A stretch of DNA of 64,000 nucleotides from an uncultured Chlorobiaceae bacterium. Its GTDB lineage: Bacteria; Bacteroidota; Ignavibacteria; UBA10030; SZUA-254. The DNA lies in contig CAZQSM010000002.1 in NCBI GenBank assembly GCA_964596065.1, positions 10,361-74,360 of the forward strand, in the 5' to 3' direction. Positions 30,845-63,341 of this stretch are shown in pieces (position 1 is the stretch's first letter; each line of letters starts with the position of its first letter). The translations under genes were made by a program, and so were the position numbers. Below the pieces are notes generated by a model that searched no databases, was not told the DNA's origin, and saw only the letters and a program-made list of their open reading frames with translations.

Positions 30845-31049
30845 CGTTATCCTCCACGGATTTCCAAAATCAGGGTCGAAATGTAAGTTGATTCATCCAA
30901 AATATCAACTAACGCCCGGAAAACCTTGATTTTTAAGAGAAAATAACATATCCTAGGCCGAAAGCTTTTAAAAACAATCCGATATCCGGGATTTCGATAT
31001 CTGCGCGTGTCCGGTCCGGGAGGGTCGACACCGGGAGGAGGAACAACCA
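30845..31049. promoter_or_regulatory. AT-rich divergent intergenic region (probable back-to-back promoters for the SPOR gene and the coiled-coil receiver gene)
   Basis: About 205 nt with clearly lower GC than the 68-70% background (runs such as TTTTTAAGAGAAAATAACATATCC). Flanked by divergent gene starts. GGGAGGAGG ribosome-binding site precedes ATG 31050. Confidence 0.5.
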
Positions 31050-33369: not shown

Positions 33370-33453
33370 ATTCGCTACCATTACGAAGGACACGCCGACA
33401 TCCTCAGTCCGGCGACACGCTGAAATTCCCCTTCATCCACAATCGTCACGCTG

Positions 33454-34860
33454 ATGAAATCGTCTTTGCTCGCCCTGCTGCTCGCGGCGTTCGTGGCCGG
33501 AACCTCGGCCCAGCCACCCACGCGCAGAAACGTCTCGGAAAAGCGCGTCACCACGATGGACACGCTCACGTCGATCAGGGAATCGATCGTCGAAAACCCC
33601 GATTCGCGTAGCGTCTCGTACGTCCTGAAGACCTCCAACGAGACGATGGCCGTGATACTGGGCGACAGGATCCAGAAGGACTACGACGCCATCGGGATGC
33701 CGGGGGTGACGTACGCGGCGGACGGCTCGCGCTGGGCGTACATGGCCAAGGCGGGCGACAAGTTCCTGGTGGTGGTGGACGGCGTCGAGTCGAAGCTGTA
33801 CGACGGGATCGGGACCGATCCCGTCTTCAGCCCCGACGGGAAGCGGGTCGCCTTCGTCGCCCGCAGGGGCGAGCGGCAGGTGGTCGTCGCGGACGGCCGA
33901 GAGGGAAAATTATACGGCGGCATCGGGGCGATCGGGCCGGTCTTCAGCGCCGACGGTAAACACCTGGCCTACGTCGCCGTCGACAGCGCGCGGAGCGTGC
34001 TGGTCACGGACGGGCGCGAGGGGAGGAGGTTCGACGCGATCGTGATGAGTTCCTTCGCCCTGAACCGCGACGGGACGAGGAGCGCGTACGTCGCCGTCGA
34101 GTCGGACACGCTCCTGCTGGCGGTCGACGGCAAGCCGGTCCGGGGCGTCAGGGTGTCGGAGGGGATCAGGCCGCAGTTCAGCCCCGACGGACGGCGCCTC
34201 GCGCTCGTCGCGTACGAGGGCGCGAAGGAATTCGTCTATCTCGACGGCAGCGGCGGGCCGCGGTACGACCGCGTTTCCGACAGGACGATGGCCTTCAGCG
34301 CGAATTCGAAGCGCTTCGCCTACCTGGCGCAGAAGGGCCCGAAGTGGTGCATGGTGATCGACGGGAAGGAGGGGAAGCTCTACGACGAGGTCGGGTCGGG
34401 GACCTTTTCGTTCAGCCCCGACGGCGCCCACCACGCGTACGTGGCGATCTCCGCCGGGAAGCGGATCGTGGTGCGTGACGGCGTGGAAGGGAAGCCGTAC
34501 GACGCGATCCCCGGGGGCAACCCGGTGTTTAGCCCCGATTCCTGGAGCCTCGCTTACGCCGCGAAGGCGGACACGATGTGGAGACTGGTGGTCGACGGAA
34601 AGGAGTCGGCGCCCTTCCCCTCGATCGAACCGGCGACGATCGTGTACGCCCCGGGGGCGAGGGGACGGGCGGCGTGCGTGGTGTCGACCGGAAGCGGCTG
34701 GGCGGTGCTGCTCGACGGGTCGCTGGGGCCGGTGTACGACGCGCTGCTCACCAGGCGGGGAGGGAGGCTGATCTTCGATTCGCCGACCAGGCTCCGTTAC
34801 CTCGCGGTCCGGGGCCAGGACGTCCTGCAGGTTTCCGAGACGATACCGCCGCGGGAGTAG
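33454..34860 (+). CDS. secreted PD40/TolB-like beta-propeller repeat protein
   Basis: Signal peptide; about ten copies of an approximately 40-aa unit (DG.R.AYVA......VVDGKEGK.YD.I....FSPDG). No HExxH or other catalytic motif. Confidence 0.55.
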   Translation: MKSSLLALLLAAFVAGTSAQPPTRRNVSEKRVTTMDTLTSIRESIVENPDSRSVSYVLKTSNETMAVILGDRIQKDYDAIGMPGVTYAADGSRWAYMAKAGDKFLVVVDGVESKLYDGIGTDPVFSPDGKRVAFVARRGERQVVVADGREGKLYGGIGAIGPVFSADGKHLAYVAVDSARSVLVTDGREGRRFDAIVMSSFALNRDGTRSAYVAVESDTLLLAVDGKPVRGVRVSEGIRPQFSPDGRRLALVAYEGAKEFVYLDGSGGPRYDRVSDRTMAFSANSKRFAYLAQKGPKWCMVIDGKEGKLYDEVGSGTFSFSPDGAHHAYVAISAGKRIVVRDGVEGKPYDAIPGGNPVFSPDSWSLAYAAKADTMWRLVVDGKESAPFPSIEPATIVYAPGARGRAACVVSTGSGWAVLLDGSLGPVYDALLTRRGGRLIFDSPTRLRYLAVRGQDVLQVSETIPPRE

Positions 34861-34881: not shown

Positions 34882-35406
34882 CTACGCGGTGAGGCGACCG
34901 CGGAGGCGGTCGCGCATCAGCAGGAGCTCCTCGCGGACCGAGAGGTCGAATTCAGCCCTCGCCGCGTATCCGAGACGCCTGCGGATTGCTTCCTGCAACT
35001 CGCCGGGGGGCGGAAGGGGAGGGGGCGCGACGAATTCATACCCGAATTTGCTCCTGTAGTAACCGAGGTCGTCGATAACCGCAGCGGGAAGGGCCTCGCC
35101 CCCCTCGAACGTCCGTTCGCGGAGCGCCTCGCGCCGGTCGTCGTCGCCGAGGCAGTGCCAGATGACCTCGGCCGCATTGAACACCACCTGGATGTTCCAG
35201 TACGGCCTGCACCCGGCCAGGGCGGCCGCCCACCGCGTCGAGCCGCAGCAGGAGAGGAAGAAATCCCTCGCATTGTCGCCGGACATGGTGTTGAGCTGGT
35301 CGAGGGTCGGCACGGGATCGGGGGTCAGGGTATGGGCCAGGCGTGGCGTGTTCGTTATCGGCGAATGGGCTGCCGATATGGTATCGAACTCCGGCGTGAA
35401 AAACAA
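34882..35406 (-). CDS. OHCU-decarboxylase-like protein (UraD family)
   Basis: FLSCCGSTRWAAALAGCRPY and YRSKFGYEFV resemble UraD conserved blocks. The domain probably starts at the internal Met (about 35286), since the N-terminal 40 aa have no counterpart. Confidence 0.45.
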   Translation of the reverse strand: MFFTPEFDTISAAHSPITNTPRLAHTLTPDPVPTLDQLNTMSGDNARDFFLSCCGSTRWAAALAGCRPYWNIQVVFNAAEVIWHCLGDDDRREALRERTFEGGEALPAAVIDDLGYYRSKFGYEFVAPPPLPPPGELQEAIRRRLGYAARAEFDLSVREELLLMRDRLRGRLTA

Positions 35407-35539
35407 ATCCTCCCGGCGTTGGAATTATTCCACCGGTTTGATATACTGCACTCCGGGCGCGGATCGCCGGTCTCTCGCCGGCCGCGGGGAACTTCCCCGC
35501 TCGCCCGTTGTTCTGAAGAAACGACACCGACCATTGCCG

Positions 35540-36883
35540 ATGACATCCACGCTTCGAACGCTCCTCGGAACCGCCCTCGCGCTTACGCTCCTTTCCCCCG
35601 CCGGGGCACACTCCCAGCGCAGGTTCGTGCTCGAAGGCGCGACCCTCATCAACGGGATCTTCGACCGGCCCCTCAAGGACCACGTCGTCGTGGTCGACGG
35701 CGGCCGGATCACCGGTGTCGGGCGGAGGAACAAGGTCATCATCCCCCAGGGCGCCGAAACGATCGACATGACGGGAAAGTACATCATACCGGGCCTCATC
35801 GACGTCCACGTCCACGAGGAATCCATGGGCGACTGGCCGCTCTTCCTGGCGTGGGGGGTCACGTCGGTCAACTGCATGTACGAAAATTCCGACACGGCGA
35901 TGGAGCGGGAGGCGTGGAGCCGGTCCGACACGCTTGCCGCGCCGAGGATCTATTCCACGGCGACCATCTTCACCGCCAGGGGAGGGTGGTGGGAGGGTGA
36001 CGGCTTTCCCGACGACCCGGCCGTGAACCGTTTTCCGGAGAACCCCGCCGAGGCGCGGGCGGCCGTGCAGGCGCTGCACGCCCGCGGGATCACCCGGATC
36101 AAGCTGATGGTCGACGACATGGGCTGGTGCCGCGACCCGCTGCCGCGACTGCGGAAGATGGACCCGGCCGTGATGAACGCCCTCCTCGACGAGGCGAAGA
36201 AACTCCGGATTGCGGCCGAGGTGCACGCGCCGAACCTCGCCGACGCCGCCGCCGCCGTCGGCGGAGGAGCGTCATCCCTGGTCCACGGCATCATCGACAG
36301 GCGCCTCGACGCGCCGTTCATCGAATCGGTGCTGGCGGGCGACGTGTTCTACGTCCCGACGTTCTCGCTCTACAGCTTCCTCGCGTCGCCGGAGGGCTTC
36401 GTCGCGCGGGCGCTGGCCGACAGCGCCTTCAGCGCCGCACTCCCGCCCGTCCGCGTCGGGAAGCTCACGGCGCCGGAGTACGCCGCGACCTACCTGGAAC
36501 GGTATCCGAACCAGGCATACGTGGCCGACCACCTCGCCATCCTCGACGCGAACGCCTCGACGATGGCGGGCAACTACGCGCAGATCGCGCTCGGGACCGA
36601 CATGTGGGCCTTCCCGGGGATCGGGGCGCACCTCGAACTCGAGTCGATGACCGCGGCCGGGCTGACGCCGATGCAGGCGCTCACCTCGGCGACCTTCCTC
36701 TCGGCGAAGATGCTCCGGATCCTCCCGCGGACCGGGACGATCGAGCCGGGGAAGGACGCCGACATCCTGGTCCTCGACGCCGACCCGCTCGCCGACATCC
36801 GGAACACCCGGTCGATCGCGATGGTCATCAAGCGGGGGAAAATCTTCACCCCGGACAGTCTGCTCGCCGCGCCGGCCCGATGA
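35540..36883 (+). CDS. secreted metal-dependent amidohydrolase-family protein
   Basis: Signal peptide MTSTLRTLLGTALALTLLSPAGA; GLIDVHVHE metal-binding HxH motif; C-terminal GTD...DADILVLDADP typical of the amidohydrolase superfamily. Confidence 0.7.
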   Translation: MTSTLRTLLGTALALTLLSPAGAHSQRRFVLEGATLINGIFDRPLKDHVVVVDGGRITGVGRRNKVIIPQGAETIDMTGKYIIPGLIDVHVHEESMGDWPLFLAWGVTSVNCMYENSDTAMEREAWSRSDTLAAPRIYSTATIFTARGGWWEGDGFPDDPAVNRFPENPAEARAAVQALHARGITRIKLMVDDMGWCRDPLPRLRKMDPAVMNALLDEAKKLRIAAEVHAPNLADAAAAVGGGASSLVHGIIDRRLDAPFIESVLAGDVFYVPTFSLYSFLASPEGFVARALADSAFSAALPPVRVGKLTAPEYAATYLERYPNQAYVADHLAILDANASTMAGNYAQIALGTDMWAFPGIGAHLELESMTAAGLTPMQALTSATFLSAKMLRILPRTGTIEPGKDADILVLDADPLADIRNTRSIAMVIKRGKIFTPDSLLAAPAR

Positions 36884-51284: not shown

Positions 51285-51635
51285 ATGATCATCGAAGAAA
51301 CCAGTGTCGGTGGCGTCGACGTGTTTCGGCTCAAGGGTGATTTCATCAGCGAACCCGACCAGACGAAATTCCAGCAGAAGGTCAGAGACCTCGTCCACGG
51401 GGGAGTCACCAGGCTGGTCGTGGACCTGCACGACGTCCATTACATCAACAGTTGCGGTATCGGTTCCCTCGTCGGGGCCCTGACGACCCTCCGCCGATCG
51501 GGCGGCGACATCCACCTCGCCGAAACCACGCGCGAGGTCAGGAGCGTCTTCGAAACCGCCCAGCTCGAACTGATATTTCATTTTCATTCCACCGTCCAGG
51601 ACGCCATCGGCGCCATCGGTCGGAAGACCCTTTAA
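51285..51635 (+). CDS. STAS-domain anti-sigma-factor antagonist (SpoIIAA/RsbV-like)
   Basis: 116 aa; LVVDLHDVHYINSCGIGSLVGA with the phosphorylatable Ser in the NSCG context typical of anti-anti-sigma factors. ATG at codon 131 of ORF 50895..; TTGACA hexamer about 55 nt upstream. Confidence 0.65.
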   Translation: MIIEETSVGGVDVFRLKGDFISEPDQTKFQQKVRDLVHGGVTRLVVDLHDVHYINSCGIGSLVGALTTLRRSGGDIHLAETTREVRSVFETAQLELIFHFHSTVQDAIGAIGRKTL

Positions 51636-51733
51636 CCAGCCACCGGGGGAGAACCACCCGCGGTCCATCATCGGTCCATTGTCCCCGGACGGGTCCGGGG
51701 GCCGGCCATTTCGTTCCCGCATCGAGCATCGGC

Positions 51734-52138
51734 ATGGAGAAAAAGTTCAGCAAGGATTTCGGTTCCCTCGACCGGATCGACGCGTTCGTCAGGTCGTTCG
51801 CGGCCGGACGCGGCCTCGACGAGGGCACCGTGTTCACGCTCAATTTCGTAATCGAGGAGATCTTCACCAACATGGTCAAGTACCAGCCCACCGCCGCGAA
51901 TGACGTCCTGATCGGACTCTCGATCGACGGCGGTTCGGTTACCGTCAAGATGGTCGACTACGGGGTGCGATACTTCGACCCGACGTCCGCTCCCCCGGTC
52001 GACACCGGGAAACCGCTCTCGGAGAGGCGCCCGGGCGGCCTCGGCGTCCACCTGGTGAAGCAGTACATGGACGACTTCAATTACGAGTATGTGGGTTCCG
52101 ACAGCATCATCACACTGACAAAAAAACTGAAGGTTTAG
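51734..52138 (+). CDS. anti-sigma regulatory factor, RsbW/SpoIIAB-like serine kinase (HATPase_c_2)
   Basis: 134 aa; NFVIEEIFTNMVKY (N-box) and GGLGVHLVKQYMDDFNY (G-box) of GHKL ATPases of the RsbW type. Confidence 0.6.
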   Translation: MEKKFSKDFGSLDRIDAFVRSFAAGRGLDEGTVFTLNFVIEEIFTNMVKYQPTAANDVLIGLSIDGGSVTVKMVDYGVRYFDPTSAPPVDTGKPLSERRPGGLGVHLVKQYMDDFNYEYVGSDSIITLTKKLKV

Positions 52139-52139
52139 C

Positions 52140-52424
52140 ATGTTCGACGCGACAATACCGGGGGAGGGACGGATCCTGCTCTCCGGACGATTTGATGCGG
52201 CCCAGGTCGAGAAGGCGAGGGCCGTCTTCGACCTGGTGAACGTCCATACGGTGGTGGATTTCGCCCAACTCGATTATATCTCGAGCGCCGGACTCGGGAT
52301 ACTCCTGATGACCCAACGGCGCCTGAAGGAGTCGGGGACCGGCCTGAAGCTGATCAACATGAACAAGCATATCAGGGACGTCTTCCAGTACGCGGGTTTC
52401 GACAAGATTTTTGAAATCGCTTGA
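52140..52424 (+). CDS. second STAS-domain anti-sigma-factor antagonist
   Basis: 94 aa; VDFAQLDYISSAGLGILL with the conserved Ser in the DxISSAG context. Starts 1 nt after the kinase stop. Confidence 0.6.
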   Translation: MFDATIPGEGRILLSGRFDAAQVEKARAVFDLVNVHTVVDFAQLDYISSAGLGILLMTQRRLKESGTGLKLINMNKHIRDVFQYAGFDKIFEIA

Positions 52425-52521
52425 AAAAAGTCCGTTATCCGGCCCGTTTTGGCATGTTTAAGCGCCCGGGAGGATGTTTCGGCGGAGATCCCAACTTTTT
52501 CCCTGATCGCCTGTACTTCCA

Positions 52522-53055
52522 ATGACCGAAGACCAGACACTGGTCCGGCGATACCTCGGCGGAGAGCGCGGGGCCTTCGAACCCCTGGTGGACCGGTACC
52601 AGAAGACGATCTACAATGTCGCGCTCCGGATGGCCCGCGATCCGGACGACGCCGCGGACATCACGCAAAACGTCTTCATCAAGGCGTCGGAAAAACTGGG
52701 GAGTTACGATCCGAAGTACAAGTTTTTCAGCTGGATCTACAGGATCGCGGTCAACGAGTCGCTGAATTTCGTCGGGTCGAAGCGGAGGAACGACGAATTG
52801 CCGGAGGACCTGGTCTCCGGCGAGGGCAATCCGGAAGAGATGCTCCAGGCGGGGATGCTTTCACACTCGGTCGAGGAAGGGCTCGCGAAACTGACCGACG
52901 ACAACCGGATCGTGATCATCCTCCGCCACTTCGAAGAGCTGTCGTACGACGAGATCGGCTTCATCCTCGACCTGCCCGTGAAAACGGTCAAATCGCGGCT
53001 CTTCACGGCGAGGCAATCACTGAAAAAAATTTTATTACAGAAATTCGAACAATGA
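52522..53055 (+). CDS. RNA polymerase sigma-70 factor, ECF subfamily
   Basis: Region 2 (YQKTIYNVALRMARDPDDAADITQNVFIKA) and region 4 HTH (LSYDEIGFILDLPVKTVKSRL). Confidence 0.85.
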   Translation: MTEDQTLVRRYLGGERGAFEPLVDRYQKTIYNVALRMARDPDDAADITQNVFIKASEKLGSYDPKYKFFSWIYRIAVNESLNFVGSKRRNDELPEDLVSGEGNPEEMLQAGMLSHSVEEGLAKLTDDNRIVIILRHFEELSYDEIGFILDLPVKTVKSRLFTARQSLKKILLQKFEQ

Positions 53056-54434
53056 AACCAACGGATTATCGGGAACTGGTCTACCGGGAACTCGACGGGG
53101 ACCTCACGCCGGAGGAGTCGGCGAAGCTCGGGGAGATGCTCGCCTCCGATCCGGAAGCGCGCATGTTCCACGACGAATGCCGCTCGATGTTCGCGATGCT
53201 GCGGGAAATCCCCAGGCGGGAGCCGTCGTCCCAGTTGAAGAAGAAGATCCTCAACAGCATTAAACCGCCGGCGCCCACTCGCCGGCATTCCATCATTCAC
53301 ACAATCACATCAACATTCACTTTTTCACAATATCAGGAGGTCGGTATGAAAAACAAGCTCATCATCGGCGGAGCGCTGGCCGCGGTCGCGGTCCTCTACT
53401 TCGCGGTTCTGTATCCCTGGCCGTCGGAATCCGAACTGTTCGGGACCATCGGCGGGGCCAAGAAATACCGTTCCGAGCAGATCGCCGACAAGGACGTCGT
53501 CCTGGAAGGGCAGGAAAACTCGACAGACGGTTCTTCGGGCGGATCGGCAAACGACGGCGGCCTCGGCCGCTCGGCGGAAGTCTTCCGCAGCGCGGACGTG
53601 CAGAAGCTCGCGGAGATCGCCCGCACCGCCGACGTGCAGAAGCTCGCGGAGATCGCCCGCACCGCCGACGTTCAAAAGCTGGCGGCGATCGCCCGCACGG
53701 CGGACTACTACCGCACGGCCGACGTCCAGAAGCTCGCGGAGATCGCGCGCACGGCCGACGTCCGGAAGTTCGCGGAGATCGCGCGCACGGCCGACGTCCA
53801 GAAACTCGCGGAGATCGCGCGCACGGCTGACGTCCAGAAGCTCGCGGATATCGCCCGCACGGCGGATTTCTACCGTACCGCGGACGTCCAGAAACTCGCG
53901 GCCATTGCCCGCACGGCTGATGTCCAGAAGCTGGCGGAGATCTCCCGCACCGCCGATGTCCAGAAAATGGCGGACATCGCGCGCACGGCCGACGTGCAGA
54001 AGCTTGCCGAGATCGCCCGCACGGCCGACGTGCAGAAGCTGGCCGAGATCGCCCGGACCGCGGACTTCTATCGCACGGCCGACGTGCAGAAGGTTGCCGA
54101 CATCGCCCGCACGGCGGATGTCCAGCGCATGGCGGACGTCGCCCGCACGGCGGATGTCCAGCGGATGACGGCCATCGCCCGCACGGCCGACGTGCAGAGG
54201 CTCGCCGACATCGCCCGCACCGCCGAGGTCTACCGCACGGCCGACGTGCAGAAGCTGGCGGAGATCGCGCGCACGGCGGATGTCCAGCGCATGGCGGACA
54301 TCGCCCGTACGGCGGACGTCCAGCGGATGACGGCCATTGCCCGCACGGCGGACCTTCAGAAGCTCGCGGAAATCGCGCGTACGACCGACATCCAGAAGAT
54401 GGCGGATATCGCCCGCTCCGCTTCCCACGAATAA
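53052..54434 (+). CDS. single-pass anti-sigma factor with tandem-repeat extracytoplasmic domain
   Basis: ATG overlaps the sigma-gene stop (ATGA). N-terminal 98 aa resemble an anti-sigma N-terminal domain (YRELDGDLTPEESAKL..FHDEC, degenerate zf-HC2). TM helix at residues 100-121. Residues 181-456 are 21 copies of ARTADVQKLAEI plus 4 AD(Y/F)YRT hexamers. Confidence 0.65.
   Translation: MKPTDYRELVYRELDGDLTPEESAKLGEMLASDPEARMFHDECRSMFAMLREIPRREPSSQLKKKILNSIKPPAPTRRHSIIHTITSTFTFSQYQEVGMKNKLIIGGALAAVAVLYFAVLYPWPSESELFGTIGGAKKYRSEQIADKDVVLEGQENSTDGSSGGSANDGGLGRSAEVFRSADVQKLAEIARTADVQKLAEIARTADVQKLAAIARTADYYRTADVQKLAEIARTADVRKFAEIARTADVQKLAEIARTADVQKLADIARTADFYRTADVQKLAAIARTADVQKLAEISRTADVQKMADIARTADVQKLAEIARTADVQKLAEIARTADFYRTADVQKVADIARTADVQRMADVARTADVQRMTAIARTADVQRLADIARTAEVYRTADVQKLAEIARTADVQRMADIARTADVQRMTAIARTADLQKLAEIARTTDIQKMADIARSASHE
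53592..54419 (+). repeat. in-frame 36-bp tandem repeat array (21 units) with four 18-bp punctuation units, coding ARTADVQKLAEI
   Basis: The period-36 repetition is directly visible in the sequence (gcccgcacggccgacgtgcagaagctcgcggagatc, etc.). Units differ mainly at synonymous third positions. Mirror ORFs on the minus strand are artefacts of the repeat. Confidence 0.9.
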
Positions 54435-54461
54435 CAGACGGCATCCCGACCGACGGTCGGA

Positions 54462-54492
54462 GGGGGGACGCCCGGCGTCCCCCCTTTTTTTT
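54462..54492 (+). terminator. rho-independent terminator downstream of the anti-sigma gene
   Basis: GGGGGGACG-cccgg-CGTCCCCCC stem-loop (9-10 bp G/C stem) immediately followed by T8. Lies 28 nt after the stop codon and only about 35 nt before the next ATG. Confidence 0.75.
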
Positions 54493-54527
54493 GCCCCCCT
54501 TTGGCATTTTTTTTAATATATTCACGA

Positions 54528-57509
54528 ATGCGTTTCACCATTTCCGTGGGCCGGATATCGGCCCGTCTGCGATTCGGCCTCCTGCTCCTGTCCGCCGCCG
54601 CGTCGGCGCCCGTCGGCGGGCCGCTCAGGGCCCAGTTCACGACGCTCGAGACGGAGCGCCAGCGCCTGATCTGGTACGACCCGGGCATCGACTACCTGAT
54701 CCCCCACGCGGCGCGGACCTTCGAGAACGCGATGACCTTTCACATGCGATTGTTCGACTATGAGCCGTCGGAGAAGGTCAGCGTCTTTCTCCACGATTTC
54801 AACGACTACGGCACGGGCGGGACGAGCACCATCCCGTGGAATTTCCTCAATATCGGCGTCGAGCCGTATGATTACGTCTACGAGACGGCCCCCACGAACG
54901 AGAGGATGAACTGGGTCTTCAACCACGAACTGGCCCACCTGGTCGCGGTGGACAAGCCCGCCGGCAGCGACCGCTTCTTCCGGTCGGTCTTCTTCGGGAA
55001 GGTGCTCCCGGTGGCCGAGAACCCCGTTTCGATGTTCTACAGCTTCCTGACCAACCCGCGATGGTATTCCCCCAGGTGGTACCACGAGGGGATCGCCACC
55101 TTCCTCGAGACCTGGATGGCCGGCGGCATCGGCAGGGCGCTCGGCGGTTACGACGAGATGATGTTCCGGACGATGGTGGCCGATTCCACCTACTTCTACG
55201 ATTTCGTCGGGATCGAGTCGGAGGGGACGACGATCGATTTCCAGATCGGGGCCAACGCGTACCTCTACGGGACCCGCTTCGTCAGTTACGTGGCGCTGAC
55301 GCGCGGGCCTGAAAAAATCCTGGAGTGGTTCAACCGGTCGGAGGGGAGCTCCGCCTACTTCGCCTCGCGGTTCGAGCAGGTCACGGGGAGCTCCCTCGAC
55401 GACGAATGGTCGCGCTGGATAGAGTTCGAGAAACGGTGGCAGCGCGCGAACCTCGATTCGGTGGGGACCTATCCCCTCACGCCGTACCGCGTGATCTACG
55501 ACGGCGTCCTCGGCTCAGTCTCGCGTCAATTCTATGATTCGGCGGCCGGTGAAATCTATTGCGCCGTCAATTATCCGGGCGCCACCGCCCACATCGCCGG
55601 GATCGACGTGGGGAGCGGGACGAAAGAGGCGCTCGTCGACGTCGAGACCCCGACCCTCTACTATGTCACGTCCATCGCCTACGATCCGGTACTCCGCAGG
55701 ATCTACTACACCACCGATAATTCCCGCTACTGGCGGGACATCAGGGTCCTCGACCTGAACACCGGCGACGACCGGAAGCTCTACAACGACGTCCGGACCG
55801 GGGACCTGGTCGTCAACCCGGCCGACCGGTCGCTCTGGGGGGTCCAGCACAACCGGGGAATCTCGAAGGTCGTCAGGATGCCCGACCCGTACACCCACCA
55901 GTACGAGGTCCTCGAGCTCGCCTACGGCAACGACCTCTTCGACCTCGACATTTCCCCCGACGGGAGGACGCTGATGGGGGTGCTGCTGGAGATCAACGGG
56001 CGGCAGAAGCTCGTCAGGATGGAGATCGATTCACTCGTCGCGGGCGTCCGCTCCCACGAGACGATCTACGAATTCGAGAACAACTCGCCGGCGAATTTCG
56101 TCTTTTCCCCGGACGGGAAGTCGGTCTACGGCACCTCGTACTACACCGGGGTGTCGAACGTGTTCAGGATCGACCTGGAGACGAAAAAACTCGACGCCCT
56201 CACGAACGCGGAGACCGGGATGTTTCGTCCCATCCCGTACACCGCGGATTCGATCATCGCATTCCGGTATTCGGGGAAGGGATTCATCCCGGTGGCGATC
56301 CCCATCCGGCCGACGGAGGACATCGCCCCGATCCGGTACCTCGGCCAGCAGATCGTCGAGCAGCACCCGGTCGTCACCACGTGGAAACTCGAACCCCCCA
56401 ACCCGCAGCGGATCAACATCGACTCGCTCACGATCTCCAGGGGCGAATACGACGGGCTGGGCGGCCTGCGCGTCGCCTCGGTCTACCCGATCGTGCAGGG
56501 ATACAAGGACGTCTACGCGCTCGGATTGACGGCGACGATCTCCGATCCGCTGCCGGTCCATTATTTCCTCCTGACGGGGTCGTGGTCCCCCAACCGCGAC
56601 CTGCCGGCGAAGGAACGGTTTCACGGTTCGGCGGAGTATTTCTACCAGACCTGGAAATTCGGCGCGGGGTACAACACCGCGGATTTCTATGACCTCTTCG
56701 GTCCCACCAAATCGAGCCGAAAGGGGTACACAGCGTCGATCGGCTACAGCCGGACAGTCTTCGAGGAGCGGCCCCGTTCGTTCGACTACGGCCTCACCCT
56801 GTCGGGCTTCTCGGACCTTGACCGGCTGCCCGACGCCCAGAACGTCACCCCGACGGTCGACCGGTTCCTCAGCCTCGGCCTGAGGCTCAATTATACGGCG
56901 TTGATGCGGACGCTCGGCGCCAACGATCACGAGCGGGGAATCAAGGCCACGCTCAACCTCAGCAGCAAGTACGGGACGAAGAAGTACTTCCCCAGGGTCC
57001 ATGCCACGTTCGATTACGGGCTGATCCTCTGGCAGCATTCGTCGCTCTGGTTCCGGACGTCGGCGGGCAATTCGTTCGGAGACCGTTCGAACACGCTGGC
57101 GAATTTCTACTTCGGCGGTTTCGGCAACAACTGGGTGGACCACGGCGAGGTGCGGCGGTACCGGGACTATTACAGTTTCCCGGGCGTCGAGATCAATGAT
57201 CTGGGGGGAAGCAACTTCGCCAAACTCACGCTCGAGTGGGACCTCCCGCCGATCCGCTTCAGGCGGGTGGGACTGCCCGCGGCCTACGCCAACTGGGCGA
57301 GGGTGGCGCTGATCTCCACCGGACTGGTGACGAACCTCGACGATGAGTCGCTGCGCCAGCGCGCGCTGAGCGTGGGGGCGCAGCTGGACCTCAAGCTGGT
57401 GTTGTTCTCCAACCAGGAATCGACCCTTTCAGGCGGCTTCGCGGCTGCCTTCCGGCCCGACCAGCGGCGCACGAGGGAGTGGATGGTGTCGCTGAAAATC
57501 CTCCGGTGA
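54528..57509 (+). CDS. 994-aa secreted protein: N-terminal HExxH (gluzincin-like) module, central PD40/TolB-like beta-propeller repeats, C-terminal beta-rich (outer-membrane-barrel-like) region
   Basis: Signal peptide MRFTISVGRISARLRFGLLLLSAAASAPVGGPLRAQ (ATG 54528; the TTG at 54501 proposed by the ORF caller was rejected). WVFNHELAHLVAVD HExxH with a downstream WYHEGIATFLE candidate third ligand. SPDGRTLMGV and FSPDGKSVYGT propeller blades. Last about 350 aa show alternating hydrophobic patterns. Confidence 0.55.
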   Translation: MRFTISVGRISARLRFGLLLLSAAASAPVGGPLRAQFTTLETERQRLIWYDPGIDYLIPHAARTFENAMTFHMRLFDYEPSEKVSVFLHDFNDYGTGGTSTIPWNFLNIGVEPYDYVYETAPTNERMNWVFNHELAHLVAVDKPAGSDRFFRSVFFGKVLPVAENPVSMFYSFLTNPRWYSPRWYHEGIATFLETWMAGGIGRALGGYDEMMFRTMVADSTYFYDFVGIESEGTTIDFQIGANAYLYGTRFVSYVALTRGPEKILEWFNRSEGSSAYFASRFEQVTGSSLDDEWSRWIEFEKRWQRANLDSVGTYPLTPYRVIYDGVLGSVSRQFYDSAAGEIYCAVNYPGATAHIAGIDVGSGTKEALVDVETPTLYYVTSIAYDPVLRRIYYTTDNSRYWRDIRVLDLNTGDDRKLYNDVRTGDLVVNPADRSLWGVQHNRGISKVVRMPDPYTHQYEVLELAYGNDLFDLDISPDGRTLMGVLLEINGRQKLVRMEIDSLVAGVRSHETIYEFENNSPANFVFSPDGKSVYGTSYYTGVSNVFRIDLETKKLDALTNAETGMFRPIPYTADSIIAFRYSGKGFIPVAIPIRPTEDIAPIRYLGQQIVEQHPVVTTWKLEPPNPQRINIDSLTISRGEYDGLGGLRVASVYPIVQGYKDVYALGLTATISDPLPVHYFLLTGSWSPNRDLPAKERFHGSAEYFYQTWKFGAGYNTADFYDLFGPTKSSRKGYTASIGYSRTVFEERPRSFDYGLTLSGFSDLDRLPDAQNVTPTVDRFLSLGLRLNYTALMRTLGANDHERGIKATLNLSSKYGTKKYFPRVHATFDYGLILWQHSSLWFRTSAGNSFGDRSNTLANFYFGGFGNNWVDHGEVRRYRDYYSFPGVEINDLGGSNFAKLTLEWDLPPIRFRRVGLPAAYANWARVALISTGLVTNLDDESLRQRALSVGAQLDLKLVLFSNQESTLSGGFAAAFRPDQRRTREWMVSLKILR

Positions 57510-57534
57510 CGGACGCGCCGATGGTGATCACCCG

Positions 57535-58560
57535 ATGAACATGGTTTCCGCCGACAGGCTCCTCGACATCGCGGTGAGCGTGCTCCCCGTGTTCCTCTTC
57601 CTCCTTGCCCTGGTGTTCCTCGACAGTTACAAGCTCGTGAAGGTCCACGAGGTGGCGGGGACCATCATCTTCGGGGCGCTCTCGGCGGTCGCGGCCCTCT
57701 TCCTGAACACGTTCATCGCCCAGTATGTGCCGAGGGGCATGCACATCATGCCCCGGTACGTCGGGCCGGTCACCGAGGAGGTCCTCAAGGCGGTGTTCGT
57801 GGTCTACCTCATCCGCAGCGGCAAGGTGGGGTTCATGGTGGACGCGGCGATCCACGGCTTCGCCGCCGGCGCCGGGTTCGCGTTCATGGAGAACGTCTAC
57901 TACCTCCAGACGGTCGGGGGGAGTTCCACCATGGTGGTATGGCTGATCCGCGGCTTCGGGACGGCCGTGATGCACGGCGGCACGGCGGCGATCATGGCGA
58001 TCATCGTGAAGAGCCTCGCCGACCGCTCCCCGTCGCCCCGGCTCTGGCACCTGGCCCCGGGCGCCGGCGCCGCGATGCTGCTCCATTCCTTTTTCAATCA
58101 TTTCCCCCTTCCGCCGCAGTTCATGACGGCGTTCCTGCTCGTCTCGCTGCCGCCGATCATGGTGTGGGTCTTCCACCGGAGCGAGAAGTCGACACGCGAG
58201 TGGCTCGGGGTCGGCTTCGACACCGATGCCACGCTCCTGGAAGCCGTGAACACCGGGGAGGTTTCCCGCACGAAGGTGGGGGAATACCTGGAGACCCTGA
58301 AGGCCAAGTTTCCGGGGGAGCTGGTCGCCGACATGCTCTGCATGCTGCGGATCCACCTGGAGCTCTCCATCCGGGCCAAGGGGGTCCTGCTGATGCGAGA
58401 GCACGGGTTCGAGTCGAAACCGGAGCCGGACACCGCGGAAAAGTTTTCGGAGCTGGACTATCTCGAGAAGAGCCTCGGCAAGACGGGGATGATGGCGATC
58501 AAGCCCTTCCTCCATACCACCTCCAGGGACCTGTGGCAGCTCTATTCGATCGGCCGATGA
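57535..58560 (+). CDS. prsW: PrsW-family intramembrane metalloprotease
   Basis: Polytopic; conserved PrsW blocks EExxK (VTEEVLKAV), FxxxH/FAFMEN (IHGFAAGAGFAFMENVYY) and HGGTAAIMA; long cytoplasmic C-terminal tail. Confidence 0.7.
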   Translation: MNMVSADRLLDIAVSVLPVFLFLLALVFLDSYKLVKVHEVAGTIIFGALSAVAALFLNTFIAQYVPRGMHIMPRYVGPVTEEVLKAVFVVYLIRSGKVGFMVDAAIHGFAAGAGFAFMENVYYLQTVGGSSTMVVWLIRGFGTAVMHGGTAAIMAIIVKSLADRSPSPRLWHLAPGAGAAMLLHSFFNHFPLPPQFMTAFLLVSLPPIMVWVFHRSEKSTREWLGVGFDTDATLLEAVNTGEVSRTKVGEYLETLKAKFPGELVADMLCMLRIHLELSIRAKGVLLMREHGFESKPEPDTAEKFSELDYLEKSLGKTGMMAIKPFLHTTSRDLWQLYSIGR

Positions 58561-59033
58561 CCGCGACGCGCGGAAGGGGGGCGTGGCCGGCGGTCACGGC
58601 CGCCGTGACGCTCTTCCTCCTCGCCTCCTGCGGGGCGCCCCCCGCGCCCGACTGGCGGAGCGAGGTGAGCGCACTCCTCACCGCCCAGGCCGCGGCGTGG
58701 AACCGCGGGGACATCGCCGGATACATGGACGGGTACTGGCGGTCGGACAGCCTCCTGTTCACCAGCGGCGGCTCGGTCAGGAGGGGGTGGTCGGAGACAT
58801 TCAAAAAGTACGCCGCGACCTACGATTCGCGTGAGAAAATGGGAACGCTCACCTTCTCCGGTCTGGAATTCCACCTCCCCGCCCCCGGCGCGGCGTGGGT
58901 CTTCGGCCGGTGGGAACTGGCCCGGGCCTCCGACGCGCCCGGCGGCGTGTTCACCGTCGTCCTCCGGCGCTTCCCCGAAGGATGGAAAATCGTCCACGAC
59001 CATACATCGTCCGACCCGGAACAACACCAGTGA
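58557..59033 (+). CDS. SnoaL-like / DUF4440 (NTF2-fold) lipoprotein
   Basis: ATG overlaps the prsW stop (ATGA). Lipobox LLASCG. LTAQAAAWNRGDIAGYMDGYWRSDSLLF...VFGRWEL...GWKIVHDHTS is typical of NTF2-like DUF4440. Confidence 0.5.
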   Translation: MTATRGRGAWPAVTAAVTLFLLASCGAPPAPDWRSEVSALLTAQAAAWNRGDIAGYMDGYWRSDSLLFTSGGSVRRGWSETFKKYAATYDSREKMGTLTFSGLEFHLPAPGAAWVFGRWELARASDAPGGVFTVVLRRFPEGWKIVHDHTSSDPEQHQ

Positions 59034-59938: not shown

Positions 59939-60087
59939 ACCGGGGGATTTTTCTCCCCCGCGGAATTTTCGTATAATGGTGAACAACCGCCATCCCGGCG
60001 CGTACACCCGTGGGCGCCGGGCCGTCACGTTTCCCGCGTTGCCGCTCACAATCAACGATTCCCAGTACAATGACATTGGAGGAGATT

Positions 60088-61434
60088 ATGTTCAGAGGCA
60101 TCAGTCTGGTCGTGATGACGCTGCTCGGGGGTTTCGCCCTGACGGCGCAGCAGGACGAGAGCAAGGTTTTTCCGTACCCGATCAACCAGGTCACGCTCGA
60201 CAACGGCCTGAAGATCGTTTCGATCCCGTTCGACAGCCCCGGGATCGTCGCCTTTTACACGGTGGTGAGGACCGGTTCGCGCAACGAGGTGGAGCCCGGC
60301 AAATCGGGCTTCGCCCATTTCTTCGAGCATATGATGTTCCGCGGGACGGAGAAATACGACAAGACCGCCTTTAACGAAATCCTCCAGTCGATCGGGGCCG
60401 ACAACAACGCGTTCACCTCCGACGACCAGACGGTCTATCATACGCTCGCGAGCGCCGACGCCCTCGAGACGATGATGGACATGGAGTCGGACCGGTTCAT
60501 GAACCTGAAGTACTCCGAGGAGGACTTCAAGACCGAGGCGGGCGCGATCCTCGGCGAATACAACAAGAACTATTCGAGCCCCTTCATGACCATCTTCGAG
60601 AAGATGCGCGAAGCGGCGTACGAGCAGCACACCTACAAGCACACCACGATGGGCTTCCTGAAGGACATCGAGGACATGCCGAACCAGTACCAGTACAGCC
60701 TGGAGTTCTTCGATCGCTGGTACCGGCCGGAGAACTGCGTGCTGGTGATCGTCGGGGATTTCGACCAGGAGAAGCTCGTGGCCCTGGCGAAGAAATATTA
60801 CGGTCCGTGGAAACGCGGGACCTACAAGCTCGACGTTCCGCTCGACGCTCCCCAGACGGCGGAGAAGCTGATCAACCTCCCCTGGAAGGCCAAGACGCTG
60901 CCGATCGTCGCCATCGGCTACCACGGGCCGGCGTTCAGCGACAATTCACGCGACATGCCGGCGATGGACCTCCTCTCGCAGCTCGTCTTCTCGCAGACGT
61001 CCGACCTTTTCCGCAAGCTGGTCATCGAACAGCAGCTGGTGGAGTTCGTGCAGGGCAGCCAACCGGACAGCAGGGACCCGGGCCTCTTCACCATCTTCGC
61101 GCGGGTGAAGGACCCGAAGAACATCGACCTGGTCCGCGAGGAGATCGAGAAGGCGATCGCGGACGCGATGGTGACGCCGGTGTCGGCGGAGCGGCTGAAG
61201 GACATCAAATCGCACCTGAAATACCAGTACGCGATGGGGCTCGACAACCCGAACTCGGTGGCGAACAGCATCAGCCATTACATCCAGCTCACGGGCGACC
61301 CCGAATCGGTGAACAGGGTCTACCGGCTCTACGACCAGATCACGCCCGCGGACATCCAGGCCGCGGCGAAGAAATATCTCACCAGGACCAACAGGACCAC
61401 GGTCATTCTCAAGCAGGAGGAGAGCTCACAATGA
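60088..61434 (+). CDS. M16-family (pitrilysin-like) zinc peptidase, catalytic subunit
   Basis: Signal peptide; inverted zinc motif HFFEHMMFRGT (HxxEH) plus downstream E; GGAGG ribosome-binding site. Confidence 0.8.
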   Translation: MFRGISLVVMTLLGGFALTAQQDESKVFPYPINQVTLDNGLKIVSIPFDSPGIVAFYTVVRTGSRNEVEPGKSGFAHFFEHMMFRGTEKYDKTAFNEILQSIGADNNAFTSDDQTVYHTLASADALETMMDMESDRFMNLKYSEEDFKTEAGAILGEYNKNYSSPFMTIFEKMREAAYEQHTYKHTTMGFLKDIEDMPNQYQYSLEFFDRWYRPENCVLVIVGDFDQEKLVALAKKYYGPWKRGTYKLDVPLDAPQTAEKLINLPWKAKTLPIVAIGYHGPAFSDNSRDMPAMDLLSQLVFSQTSDLFRKLVIEQQLVEFVQGSQPDSRDPGLFTIFARVKDPKNIDLVREEIEKAIADAMVTPVSAERLKDIKSHLKYQYAMGLDNPNSVANSISHYIQLTGDPESVNRVYRLYDQITPADIQAAAKKYLTRTNRTTVILKQEESSQ

Positions 61435-62948
61435 AGACGTCGGCACTGATACTGATGGCAGCATTCGCGATGGCCCTGACCCCCGCACCCCTCTCCGCCC
61501 AGGGCGGGTCCGCGGTGAAAATTACCGAGCTCCGGAGCGAACGTTCTCCGCTCATCACGATCCGGATCGCGCTCCGCTCCGGGGCGATCAACGATCCCGC
61601 CGGCAAGGAAGGGCTCAACGCCCTCACCGCCACGCTCATCGAGCAGGGCGGGACGCAGAGCCTCACCTACGCCCAGGTGATGGAAAAACTCTACCCGTGG
61701 GCGGCAAACATCTCCTCGCAGTCGGACCACGAGCTCACGACGTTCACCGGCAACGTCCACCGCGACCACCTCGAGGCGTTCTACAGGCTCTTCACCGACC
61801 TCGTGCTCAGGCCGCGGTTCGATTCGGCCGATTTCTCGAGGGTGAAGGACCTGGGGATCAACTACCTGGTGAACACGCTCCGGTCCACCGACGACGAGGG
61901 GCTGGGCAAGCAGGCGCTCAACGCGTTCCTCTTCGAGGGGCATCCGTACGGTACGACGGAATTCGGGACGGTGCAGGGGCTGACGTCGATCACGCTCGAC
62001 GACGTGAAGGCCTATTACGCGAAGACCTACACCCGGGCCAACATCTGGGTCGGGATCGCGGGCGGCTATCCGGCCGGGTTCGCGGAGAGGATCCGCGCCG
62101 ATTTCGGATCTCTGCCGGCGGGCGAAGCGACGGTCGTGGCGCTTCCGGCGCCGTCGAAGATCGAAGGCCTGGAACTGCTGGTGGTCCAGAAACCCGCGCG
62201 GGCCTACGCCGTCTCGATGGGGTTCCCGCTCCCGATCACCAGGAAGGACAGGGACTTCTACGCACTGATGGTGGCGAACTCCTATTTCGGGGAACACCGG
62301 ACCTTCAGCGGTGTGCTGATGAACACCATCCGGGGCGACCGGGGAATGAACTACGGCGACTACTCGTACATCGAAAAATTCACCGGCGGGACCTCGGGGA
62401 CCACCTTCCCGAACGTGAACACCCCGCTGCGGCAGCAGTTTTTCAGCATCTGGCTCCGGCCGATGCCCCCGGCGCAGACGCACTTCGGGATACGGGCCGC
62501 GCTGTACGAACTCAAACGCCTCGTCGACCAGGGGCTGAGCGAGGCGGACTTCGAGACCACGCGAAAATTCCTCACAAACTATTCCAAGCTCTGGGCCGCC
62601 ACGGCGGACCGCCGGCTCGGATACGTGATGGACAGCGAATTCTACGGCACGCCATACTACATCGACCGGATCGCGAGCGAGCTGAAGACGCTCACGGCGG
62701 CGGACGTCAACGCGGCGGTGAAGAAATACCTGTCGCCCGACAACCTCAGGATCGCGGTGGTGGTGGACGCCGGCGCCGGCACGGCGTTCTTCGACAACCT
62801 GGCGAACAACGTCCCCTCGCCGATGGCGTACGAGGCCCCGAAGCCGCAGGCCGTCCTGGACACCGACAAGGTGATCGAGGTCTTCCCGCTGAAGGTGAAC
62901 AGGGCGAAGTCGAGGGTGGTCGAGGCGAAGGACCTGTTCGAGAAGTAG
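61431..62948 (+). CDS. M16-family peptidase homologue lacking HxxEH (non-catalytic partner subunit)
   Basis: Signal peptide; M16 fold blocks present but no HxxEH. ATG overlaps the upstream stop (ATGA). Confidence 0.7.
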   Translation: MKTSALILMAAFAMALTPAPLSAQGGSAVKITELRSERSPLITIRIALRSGAINDPAGKEGLNALTATLIEQGGTQSLTYAQVMEKLYPWAANISSQSDHELTTFTGNVHRDHLEAFYRLFTDLVLRPRFDSADFSRVKDLGINYLVNTLRSTDDEGLGKQALNAFLFEGHPYGTTEFGTVQGLTSITLDDVKAYYAKTYTRANIWVGIAGGYPAGFAERIRADFGSLPAGEATVVALPAPSKIEGLELLVVQKPARAYAVSMGFPLPITRKDRDFYALMVANSYFGEHRTFSGVLMNTIRGDRGMNYGDYSYIEKFTGGTSGTTFPNVNTPLRQQFFSIWLRPMPPAQTHFGIRAALYELKRLVDQGLSEADFETTRKFLTNYSKLWAATADRRLGYVMDSEFYGTPYYIDRIASELKTLTAADVNAAVKKYLSPDNLRIAVVVDAGAGTAFFDNLANNVPSPMAYEAPKPQAVLDTDKVIEVFPLKVNRAKSRVVEAKDLFEK

Positions 62949-62951
62949 CGG

Positions 62952-63176
62952 TTGAAAATATCCGTCATCGTCAAACCGAACTCGAAGCGGGAGGGCGTCG
63001 TCGCCTCGGGGGAGGGGACCTACACGGTGCGCGTGTCCGCGCGGCCGGTGGAGGGGAGGGCGAACGAAAGGGTCGTGGAACTGCTGGCCGGCCATTTCGG
63101 GGTCCCGAAGGGGCGGGTGACCATCCTCCGGGGGGTCGCCGGACGGAAGAAGATCGTCGAAATCGCAACGTCGTGA
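62952..63176 (+). CDS. DUF167 (YggU-family) protein
   Basis: 74 aa; VKPNSKREGV ... VRVSARPVEGRANE ... GVPKGRVTILRGVAGRKK matches DUF167. Confidence 0.6.
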   Translation: MKISVIVKPNSKREGVVASGEGTYTVRVSARPVEGRANERVVELLAGHFGVPKGRVTILRGVAGRKKIVEIATS

Positions 63177-63180
63177 TATC

Positions 63181-63216
63181 GCCCCCGCCGGGAGCCCGGC
63201 GGGGGCATCCATTTTC
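63181..63216 (+). terminator. rho-independent terminator after the DUF167 gene
   Basis: GCCCCCGCCGGG-agc-CCCGGCGGGGGC perfect 12-bp stem followed by a T-rich tract. Confidence 0.65.
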
Positions 63217-63341
63217 GTTACCACTATTTAAATGCGTATTTTGATCCCGACCCGGGGCCATGTTCAGGCCCGCGACACTCTTTCCTTGCGCCCCTCAGGG
63301 TCATTGCGTACATTGAACGTTCCCTGAATTCAGCATTGACG

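Follow-up and report, generated by a model that had tools for sequence, protein, structure and literature searches.

Gene content of the locus

The window analyzed here is a 64,000-nucleotide (nt) stretch of contig CAZQSM010000002.1 from an uncultured Chlorobiaceae bacterium, with a G+C content of ~65%. At positions 51285–59033 it carries genes for an RsbW-like kinase between two STAS proteins, a sigma factor of the extracytoplasmic function (ECF) class, a membrane protein in which an anti-sigma domain is fused to a tandem-repeat ectodomain, a large HExxH/propeller envelope protein (hereafter the big protein), an intramembrane protease of the PrsW family, and a lipoprotein. Comparative analysis revealed that six to seven of these genes constitute a module found in hundreds of species and more than 10 bacterial phyla. 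Genes were called from frame plots of third-codon-position G+C and inspection of start codons, and domains were called with Pfam and NCBIfam, which upheld every domain assignment made in the initial annotation of the region. The features, with lengths in amino acids (aa), are as follows.

51285–51635, + strand: STAS1, anti-sigma-antagonist type, 116 aa (Pfam STAS, 56.8 bits; TIGR00377, 55.7 bits, cut-off 53.45)
51734–52138, + strand: RsbW/SpoIIAB-like serine kinase, putative anti-sigma factor, 134 aa (Pfam HATPase_c_2)
52140–52424, + strand: STAS2, antagonist partner of the kinase, 94 aa (Pfam STAS_2, 47.7 bits)
52490–52518, + strand: ECF-type promoter motif P1, CCCAACTTTTT-N-TGTACTT (match to a conserved motif)
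52522–53055, + strand: ECF (group 4) sigma factor, 177 aa (Pfam Sigma70_r2 and Sigma70_r4_2)
53052–54434, + strand: anti-sigma/repeat fusion protein, 460 aa (weak N-terminal NCBIfam anti-sigma matches; repeat array)
54459–54495, + strand: intrinsic-terminator-like hairpin, 13-bp G+C-rich stem and T8 (RNAfold, -31.4 kcal/mol)
54528–57509, + strand: big protein, 993 aa (predicted signal peptide, gluzincin, propeller and barrel)
57535–58560, + strand: PrsW-family intramembrane protease, 341 aa (Pfam PF13367)
58557–59033, + strand: SnoaL_3/DUF4440 lipoprotein, 158 aa, lipobox LLASC (Pfam SnoaL_3, 31.9 bits; DUF4440, 31.5 bits)

The initial annotation described eight same-strand genes with minimal spacing and two ATGA overlaps. 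All eight genes lie on the + strand and both overlaps exist (53052–53055 and 58557–58560), but three of the gaps measure 93–98 nt, one of which carries the conserved promoter motif and another the strong terminator. Co-orientation provides no argument for an operon, because nearly all genes of the window lie on the + strand.

Conservation of the gene order across phyla

We fetched 80 species-level loci from a species-representative genome set, anchored on an alignment of the big protein, for which at least 596 places were confirmed. These loci were drawn from more than 10 phyla of the Fibrobacteres–Chlorobi–Bacteroidetes (FCB) group and the Acidobacteriota; Bacteroidota/Ignavibacteria, KSB1, Eisenbacteria, Latescibacterota, Krumholzibacteriia, Zixibacteria, Calditrichota, Fibrobacterota, Balneolales/Rhodothermaceae and several Acidobacteriota classes are among them, as are Thermoanaerobaculia, Aminicenantes, Bryobacterales, Vicinamibacteria and Terriglobia. 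Gracilimonas, Ignavibacterium and Paludibaculum are among the genera represented. Synteny was scored by searching the window proteins against the six-frame open reading frames (ORFs) of the 80 loci, and the denominators 46 (upstream genes) and 70 (PrsW) count the loci with enough flank. A relative of the window locus at 79% identity is referred to as L081.

The gene order RsbW–STAS2–ECF sigma–anti-sigma–repeat protein–big protein–PrsW recurs across the 80 loci. Under a strict test, 61 of 70 loci have a PrsW gene that starts at most 1 kb downstream of the big gene, a count that rises to ~68 of 70 once ORF-call artefacts and placement on the opposite side are allowed for. Upstream of the big gene, RsbW is found in 40/46 loci, an ECF sigma in 36/46 and any STAS protein in 41/46, with STAS2 following RsbW in 37/46. 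Without exception in the loci inspected, the gene immediately before the big gene encodes a repeat protein with an N-terminal membrane helix. The pairwise identities of one component track those of the others (Spearman r = 0.37–0.71, although shared phylogeny alone also yields such correlations), the best-correlated pair being RsbW and STAS2 (r = 0.71).

STAS1-type genes lie upstream of the big gene in only 7/46 loci and are present in L081; STAS1 is thus an accessory of close relatives that appears sporadically in other phyla. Homologues of aat, purC and the SnoaL lipoprotein gene were found in none of the 80 loci, and outside the window the SnoaL gene occurs only in L081. The SnoaL lipoprotein is a local passenger, and it lies outside the module together with aat and purC. 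All-against-all clustering of the 10-kb flanks of the 80 loci yielded no further widely shared family.

Six Acidobacteriota loci (L062, L073, L074, L077, L078, L080) display a variant order, STAS–RsbW–repeat–big–PrsW, with no ECF sigma or anti-sigma gene within 10 kb. Their hosts belong to Bryobacterales, Terriglobia and Vicinamibacteria; a PP2C phosphatase gene is often nearby, and the repeat gene has no promoter motif upstream.

These results recast the composite cassette of the initial annotation: with at least 596 matching places in species-representative genomes, it is no one-off but an old and widespread module. The suggestion that the genes are functionally linked, beyond mere adjacency, is borne out by their co-occurrence in dozens of species of many phyla. 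Rather than being common families without linkage to one another, the HExxH/propeller and repeat proteins neighbor PrsW, ECF sigma, anti-sigma and RsbW/STAS genes, and the conserved order extends well past the sigma/anti-sigma pair. The proposed unit of eight genes is reduced to six or seven conserved ones, as the SnoaL gene (0/80 loci) and the sporadic STAS1 fall away. We consider it rather probable that the module is a conserved, vertically inherited, multi-phylum envelope-signaling unit.

ECF sigma factor, predicted promoter and transcription units

Domain analysis of the sigma factor revealed Sigma70_r2 (55.6 bits) and Sigma70_r4_2 (48.4 bits), with 109.5 bits to TIGR02937 (cut-off 42.9). 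Judged by this content, sigma2 and sigma4 only within 177 aa, the protein is classed as an ECF (group 4) sigma. Against 90 equivalog and subfamily models it scored below cut-off throughout, the best being RpoE (120.6 bits; cut-off 236) and SigW (118.9 bits; cut-off 209). An ECF-derived hidden Markov model (HMM), a weak test for group-3 sigmas, detected no further sigma-like ORF in the 64 kb, and no sigmas other than ECFs were seen in the 80 loci.

A bipartite promoter-like motif with the consensus CACCAACTTTT-N12-TGTAyTT lies directly upstream of the ECF gene in 24–29 loci from several phyla. In the form CCAACTTTT-N13-TGTA the motif has 61 instances, 28 of which place the GTA 3–4 nt before the sigma ATG. 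The P1 copy in the window lies 6 nt before the sigma ATG and is the sole match in 64 kb, against 0.04 expected by chance. Its geometry, AAC-N17-GTA, is shared by sigmaW-type promoters, whose consensus is TGAAAC-N16-CGTA. A second copy stands ahead of the repeat-protein gene in ~28 loci, and no copy was found upstream of RsbW across the loci scanned. In seven Balneolales loci (L041, L049, L051, L054, L063, L069, L070) the motif precedes the fused anti-sigma/repeat gene and not the ECF gene, the reverse of the window. Scanning the locus for sigma-70 promoters gave 1 match against 1.7 expected and was uninformative.

We considered whether the ATG beside the promoter is a false start and rejected this, because protein conservation begins at residues 4–8, ahead of any alternative start codon. 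The ATG beside the promoter is therefore the real sigma start, and the mRNA would be leaderless or nearly so.

A comparable hairpin followed by a T-run separates the repeat gene from the big gene in 22/76 loci. Together, promoters and terminators delineate the likely transcription units [RsbW–STAS2], [ECF–anti-sigma] and [repeat–(attenuator)–big–PrsW], the last two of which are merged by the fusion in the window.

The anti-sigma/repeat protein

In the fusion protein, a predicted cytoplasmic anti-sigma domain (approximately residues 1–75) is followed by a membrane helix at residues 103–121 (nt 53358–53414). The anti-sigma matches of the N terminus are weak (NF052375, E = 2.5e-5, below cut-off). 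Beyond the helix comes a conserved juxtamembrane motif, GTIGGAKKYRSEQIADKDVVL (nt 53442–53504), and then the tandem-repeat ectodomain at residues 173–457 (nt 53568–54422), which comprises ~22 units of RTADVQKLAEIA interspersed with five 6-residue half-units, RTAD[YF]Y; Tandem Repeats Finder scores reach 736. The initial annotation had taken the whole ectodomain for a tandem repeat. The repeat is real and makes up most of it, but a conserved 50-residue juxtamembrane segment comes first.

A repeat-bearing anti-sigma is likewise true of the window, although as a fusion: most lineages encode two separate proteins, a ~250-aa anti-sigma with its own membrane helix and periplasmic domain, and a membrane-anchored repeat protein. 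Fused forms occur in the window, in L081, in L003, L004, L005, L011 and L023, in several Bacteroidota/Ignavibacteriales loci and in Balneolales/Rhodothermaceae. That the anti-sigma domain is repeatedly found joined to the repeat protein ties the latter to anti-sigma function. The repeat proteins share the general juxtamembrane motif G[TA]IG..(K/R)Y(R/Q)..QI...DV.L, and the stand-alone anti-sigmas carry a G-T-[ILM] motif, common to the repeat proteins, 10–15 residues past the membrane helix. Fusion and shared motif are the best evidence that the repeat protein may take part in sigma control.

The repeat arrays consist of 9- or 12-residue units that are near-identical within one protein and unrelated between lineages (for example SDAFRQALA, SPDFSRLMA, RATLQEKAxxxE, LEKMPxLERAxx and NSxFxxLxx), and the proteins range from ~245 to 856 aa, a more than threefold variation. 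Helix N-cap-like motifs (S/T-x-x-D/E, SP) are present in every repeat unit. The window protein scores 36.6 bits against LED_rpt (PF20854; cut-off 59), while its L001 orthologue reaches 72.8 bits and also matches the helical MgtE_N (E = 2e-14). Because of the N-cap-like motifs and the LED_rpt and MgtE_N matches in this one orthologue, we take the array to be short helices forming a solenoid or rod. A left-handed beta-helix, considered for the 6/12-residue periodicity and weak LpxA/LpxD matches, was dropped in view of the 9-residue orthologue units, the N-cap motifs and the MgtE_N/LED_rpt matches. A strict periplasm-ruler role is weakened by the length variation.

Several further observations concern the gene itself. 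Inside the fused gene (53326–53348), a strong Shine-Dalgarno-like AGGAGG precedes by 7 nt an in-frame ATG at 53346, exactly the point at which other lineages would begin their stand-alone repeat protein, so this internal ATG may give a separate repeat product beside the fused one. The 460-aa product of the window is absent from a collection of 15 billion proteins, and public gene calls miss its anti-sigma domain (53052–53345). In L081 the annotated repeat gene begins at the internal ATG (329 aa), leaving ~290 nt unannotated (6614–6909); there the anti-sigma part is frame-shifted relative to the repeat part, through a sequencing error or a real disruption.

A predicted zincin–propeller–barrel protein of the envelope

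The big protein begins with a predicted signal peptide, followed by a gluzincin domain (residues 38–312) with the HELAH motif at nt 54924–54938 and E187 as the third ligand. Structure modeling predicted a TolB-like six-bladed propeller at residues 329–592 (nt 55512–56303) and a C-terminal beta-barrel of 16–18 long strands at residues 637–991 (nt 56436–57500). H133, E134 and H137 of HELAH and E187 are invariant in 21 diverse homologues, in which mean column identity is 65%, and the segment WYHEGIA aligns locally with WLNEGFA of M1 aminopeptidases. With HExxH and a downstream glutamate, the protein is assigned by its motifs to the gluzincins (clan MA(E)), and catalysis is predicted.

Pfam coverage of the family is sparse: over 21 members, Peptidase_MA_2 matched 7 (weakly), PD40 matched 5 and Omp85_2 matched 1. 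The Omp85_2 match of the big protein, 22.4 bits, falls just under the cut-off of 23.1, and a phmmer search of the barrel region against PDB sequences returned no match. The initial annotation had called it a 994-aa secreted HExxH propeller protein; the HExxH motif and the propeller stand, the length is 993 aa, and the predicted C-terminal barrel makes it probably anchored in the outer membrane, not freely secreted. The family is large, with more than 4,400 clusters matching in a word-indexed search, although an exact-sequence look-up of contigs for the window's own copy returned no record. An exhaustive search of 50%-identity representatives recovered 458 at E <= 1e-30, with the full-length architecture retained down to 27% identity. 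It is also the most conserved component of the module (mean pairwise identity 52% across phyla).

The PrsW-family protease

The PrsW protein matches PF13367 with 76.6 bits (cut-off 23.5), and its E81, E82, K85, H147, H184 and N188 (EExxK, H, HxxxN) are invariant. The structure model comprises seven membrane helices (residues 6–224) and an all-helical C-terminal domain at residues 231–340 (nt 58225–58554); this extra domain is subfamily-specific and predicted to be cytoplasmic. The fold model matches APH-1 and TMEM147, and APH-1 is reportedly homologous to the CPBP/PrsW superfamily (Pei et al. 2011). Orthology to B. subtilis PrsW was not recovered by NF033739 (25.8 bits against a cut-off of 225). 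In B. subtilis, PrsW is the site-1 protease of RsiW (PMC10202637). Gene linkage and that precedent are the whole basis on which we propose that the window PrsW might perform site-1 cleavage of the anti-sigma ectodomain.

The partner-switching proteins

The RsbW-like kinase matches HATPase_c_2 (PF13581) with 63.3 bits (cut-off 27.4). Its N-box (VEExFTN) and G2 box (GGLGxHLV) are conserved and its G1 box partly so, the G1 glycines not being conserved across 51 sequences; against the RsbW/SpoIIAB equivalogs it scores 21.8 bits (cut-offs 135–155). Both STAS proteins lie above the STAS/STAS_2 cut-off, with STAS2 at 47.8 bits against the TIGR00377 cut-off of 53.45. The serine of the STAS2 motif YISSAGLG is kept in at least 95% of 49 sequences and fits a DSSGLG-like phosphorylatable loop.

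A PP2C (SpoIIE-type) phosphatase with GAF or cyclic-nucleotide-binding (cNMP) sensor domains adjoins or is fused to RsbW in 23/80 loci; in the 64-kb window, tblastn found none. Four Thermoanaerobaculia loci (L022, L034, L044, L046) encode GAF–PP2C–kinase as one polypeptide, and Aminicenantes L079 encodes kinase–cNMP-binding–PP2C as one. Because the six ECF-less Acidobacteriota loci keep RsbW/STAS, the partner switch is at least as tightly tied to the trio of repeat protein, big protein and PrsW as the sigma is. The target of RsbW may be the sigma, the anti-sigma domain or the C-terminal domain of PrsW.

Genomic context of the window

The flanking genes are of housekeeping type: addB-like, pfk and aat upstream, purC and M16 peptidase genes downstream. 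The M16 (insulinase-type) genes follow purC both in the window (60010–63244) and in L081 (13732–18273), where they are in turn followed by a gene for a Por_Secre_tail (type IX secretion signal) protein, a sign that the host is of Bacteroidota type. Credible ORFs of the window lie almost entirely on the + strand, an extreme strand bias, and no tRNA genes were found in its 64 kb. G+C content falls to 0.60 over 52000–54000, and third-position G+C is 0.77–0.79 in the regulatory genes versus 0.88–0.91 in the genes for the big protein and PrsW; the pattern agrees with a weaker codon bias among the regulators and does not indicate that they are foreign.

Elsewhere, a 783-aa ORF (30972–33323) combines a C-terminal response-regulator receiver domain with ~650 N-terminal residues without a Pfam match. 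It sits in the lowest-G+C part of the window (28–32 kb), and its second-codon-position G+C of 0.35 is unusually low. A second PD40 propeller protein adjoins an amidohydrolase (33424–34860, 35063–36883); it belongs to the same propeller class and is unrelated to the module.

Proposed mechanism and alternative explanations

Given the observed genetic linkage, we favor with moderate confidence a trans-envelope, proteolysis-controlled ECF system that receives a cytoplasmic phospho-switch input. With about the same assurance, its core is taken to consist of the RsbW-like kinase, the STAS antagonist, the ECF sigma, an anti-sigma domain of class-I type, the inner-membrane repeat protein with its hypervariable ectodomain of short-helix units, the gluzincin–propeller–barrel protein in the outer membrane, and PrsW. 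The contacts and cleavages between these proteins that we infer are as follows. At rest, the anti-sigma domain, here fused to the repeat protein, would keep the sigma at the inner membrane, while the periplasmic repeat rod would point to the barrel-anchored zincin–propeller. The propeller would dock the rod and the zincin would trim or cleave it; PrsW would then cut near the juxtamembrane GT[IL]G motif, which repeat proteins have in common with stand-alone anti-sigmas, and release would be completed by a site-2 protease whose gene lies elsewhere. The freed sigma would fire its own start-codon-abutting promoter and, in lineages with split genes, also the second promoter before the repeat, big and PrsW genes, thereby amplifying itself and renewing sensor and proteases. 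RsbW/STAS would add a phosphorylation-controlled cytoplasmic input, with either the sigma or PrsW's cytoplasmic domain as its target.

Several points weigh against this proposal. The window PrsW scores far below the NCBIfam PrsW equivalog cut-off (25.8 versus 225 bits), and a PP2C phosphatase is lacking from the 64-kb window by tblastn. The evidence for the barrel consists of a structure model and a sub-threshold Pfam match, and Omp85 proteins are the analogy on which a periplasmic orientation of zincin and propeller is assumed. That the repeat proteins vary more than threefold in length speaks against their serving as a strict distance ruler. Between the anti-sigma/repeat gene and the genes for the big protein and PrsW stands a strong terminator, both in the window and in 22/76 loci, and the six Acidobacteriota loci hold STAS–RsbW–repeat–big–PrsW with neither ECF sigma nor anti-sigma within 10 kb. 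As the most conserved component, the big protein resembles a housekeeping enzyme more than a sensor. Finally, synteny and the shared promoter are just as compatible with a sigma that has the repeat protein, big protein and PrsW as its outputs, not its sensors.

This last point leads to the main rival, which we regard as possible though unlikely: an ordinary ECF/anti-sigma regulator whose regulon, comprising the repeat protein, the zincin–propeller and PrsW, serves envelope maintenance or quality control, for example by degrading mislocalized envelope proteins. With a second promoter copy ahead of the repeat gene, the genes for the repeat protein, big protein and PrsW count as part of the regulon, and the terminators just cited split the regulatory and effector halves of the locus. 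The big protein is conserved more strongly than the regulators, and the Acidobacteriota loci retain the repeat–big–PrsW trio without a local ECF. Yet the recurrent anti-sigma/repeat fusion places the repeat protein physically in the sigma-control step, the juxtamembrane motif is common to stand-alone anti-sigmas, and anti-sigma cleavage is the sole established role of PrsW (PMC10202637). Fusions and shared motif thus argue against outputs without sensors as a complete account. The two readings are also not exclusive, since sensors are often autoregulated.

A bolder extension, which we hold to be doubtful, is that RsbW/STAS/PP2C gates PrsW through its cytoplasmic domain instead of sequestering the sigma. 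The module would then be the FCB/Acidobacteriota envelope-integrity sensor, a counterpart of sigmaE and Rcs, in which rod cleavage by the zincin–propeller would license PrsW. Such protease gating is compatible with the ECF-less STAS–RsbW–repeat–big–PrsW loci and with the conserved PrsW C-terminal domain. If true, regulated intramembrane proteolysis would for the first time be seen under partner-switch control.

Alternatively, RsbW/STAS could be an unrelated neighbor that controls a group-3 sigma or another target elsewhere, its synteny reflecting shared ancestry of the region. RsbW/STAS does lie upstream of the sigma promoter with no motif copy of its own, and the window offers no phosphatase by tblastn. 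In Bordetella, moreover, the btr locus brings together an ECF sigma and BtrU/W/V, and its switch is no classical anti-sigma for that sigma (PMC7498569). We nevertheless consider this quite improbable: RsbW/STAS is retained beside the module across more than 10 phyla, persists when moved downstream of PrsW (L045, L062) and where the ECF is absent (L073, L074, L077, L078, L080), while all other flanking genes differ between phyla, and the ECF-derived HMM found no other sigma-like ORF in 64 kb.

Chance juxtaposition of common families, which the prevailing + strand orientation and the housekeeping flanks (addB, pfk, aat; purC, M16 peptidases) might suggest, is refuted to near certainty by an arrangement that is conserved across phyla and never includes aat, purC or SnoaL in the 80 loci.

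Novelty and significance

Full-text literature on PrsW together with ECF, STAS, RsbW, Omp85 or PD40 comprised only Firmicutes sigmaW/sigmaV work and unrelated papers. The main text of the ECF re-classification paper makes no mention of PrsW, STAS, RsbW or HATPase; its supplementary tables may already list the ECF group. The view in the initial annotation that the arrangement is undescribed therefore agrees with the searchable literature, where no description was found. The module is apparently undescribed: ECF control by regulated proteolysis is known, and the components are new and conserved.

ECF control through anti-sigma proteolysis is well known, and the envelope-stress circuitry of Acidobacteriota and of the FCB group (Ignavibacteria, Rhodothermia/Balneolia, KSB1, Zixibacteria, Calditrichota, Fibrobacterota and relatives) is essentially uncharted. 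An odd-looking locus now becomes a defined unit for which a promoter and catalytic residues are predicted and in which a natural fusion hints at contacts. It introduces several new subjects: a ~980-residue zincin–propeller–barrel family almost without Pfam coverage; membrane-anchored proteins whose short helical repeats are homogenized in any one lineage and wholly exchanged from one lineage to another; a subfamily of PrsW that bears a cytoplasmic domain; and a conserved association of partner switch and ECF sigma. It also calls for a correction, as current annotations miss the anti-sigma domain of the fused gene.

Comparison with known systems

The module resembles the sigmaW–RsiW–PrsW–RasP system of B. 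subtilis in its ECF sigma with a single-pass anti-sigma, its PrsW-family protease residues and its promoter geometry. It differs in the extra 110-residue cytoplasmic domain and sub-equivalog score of its PrsW, and in a host that has an outer membrane. It further adds an outer-membrane zincin–propeller, a repeat protein and a partner switch, and its PrsW gene is part of the module, in contrast to B. subtilis, where prsW and sigW are unlinked.

A three-compartment layout of outer-membrane barrel, periplasm-spanning inner-membrane anti-sigma and ECF sigma also characterizes FecA–FecR–FecI, an analogy of layout only. FecR-type anti-sigmas are also proteolytically processed. Unlike FecA, however, the big protein is no TonB-dependent transducer and has no signaling domain, carrying zincin and propeller instead; Pfam and NCBIfam scans found no TonB transducer, signaling domain or FecR anti-sigma in any component. 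Nor is it a TolB orthologue (TIGR02800, 17.8 bits against a cut-off of 343), and unlike Omp85 proteins, among which its sub-threshold score does not place it, it has zincin and propeller in place of POTRA domains.

With RsbU–RsbV–RsbW–sigmaB and SpoIIE–SpoIIAA–SpoIIAB–sigmaF the module shares a HATPase_c_2 kinase beside a STAS protein with a conserved serine, and a PP2C phosphatase in 23/80 loci. In contrast to those systems, the sigma linked here is of the ECF type and already comes with an anti-sigma of its own, neither the kinase nor STAS2 reaches the RsbW/SpoIIAB/SpoIIAA cut-offs, the G1 box is partial, and no group-3 sigma was found nearby (64 kb, with the ECF-derived HMM that is weak for this group). 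A single Bordetella locus, btr (BtrS with BtrU/BtrW/BtrV), likewise unites a PP2C/kinase/STAS trio with an ECF sigma and that sigma's own anti-sigma; the trio works by a mechanism other than simple sigma sequestration (PMC7498569). Unlike the module, btr controls type III secretion, lacks PrsW, an outer-membrane protease and a repeat protein, and is confined to one genus.

As in the sigmaE and Rcs systems, surveillance of the outer membrane and periplasm would be relayed to the cytoplasm. E. coli sigmaE–RseA–DegS–RseP signals via anti-sigma proteolysis, and Rcs (RcsF/IgaA) via envelope-geometry-dependent contact. The sensing components of the module are non-homologous to these, and its candidate proteases, a barrel-anchored gluzincin and PrsW, stand in place of a PDZ serine protease.

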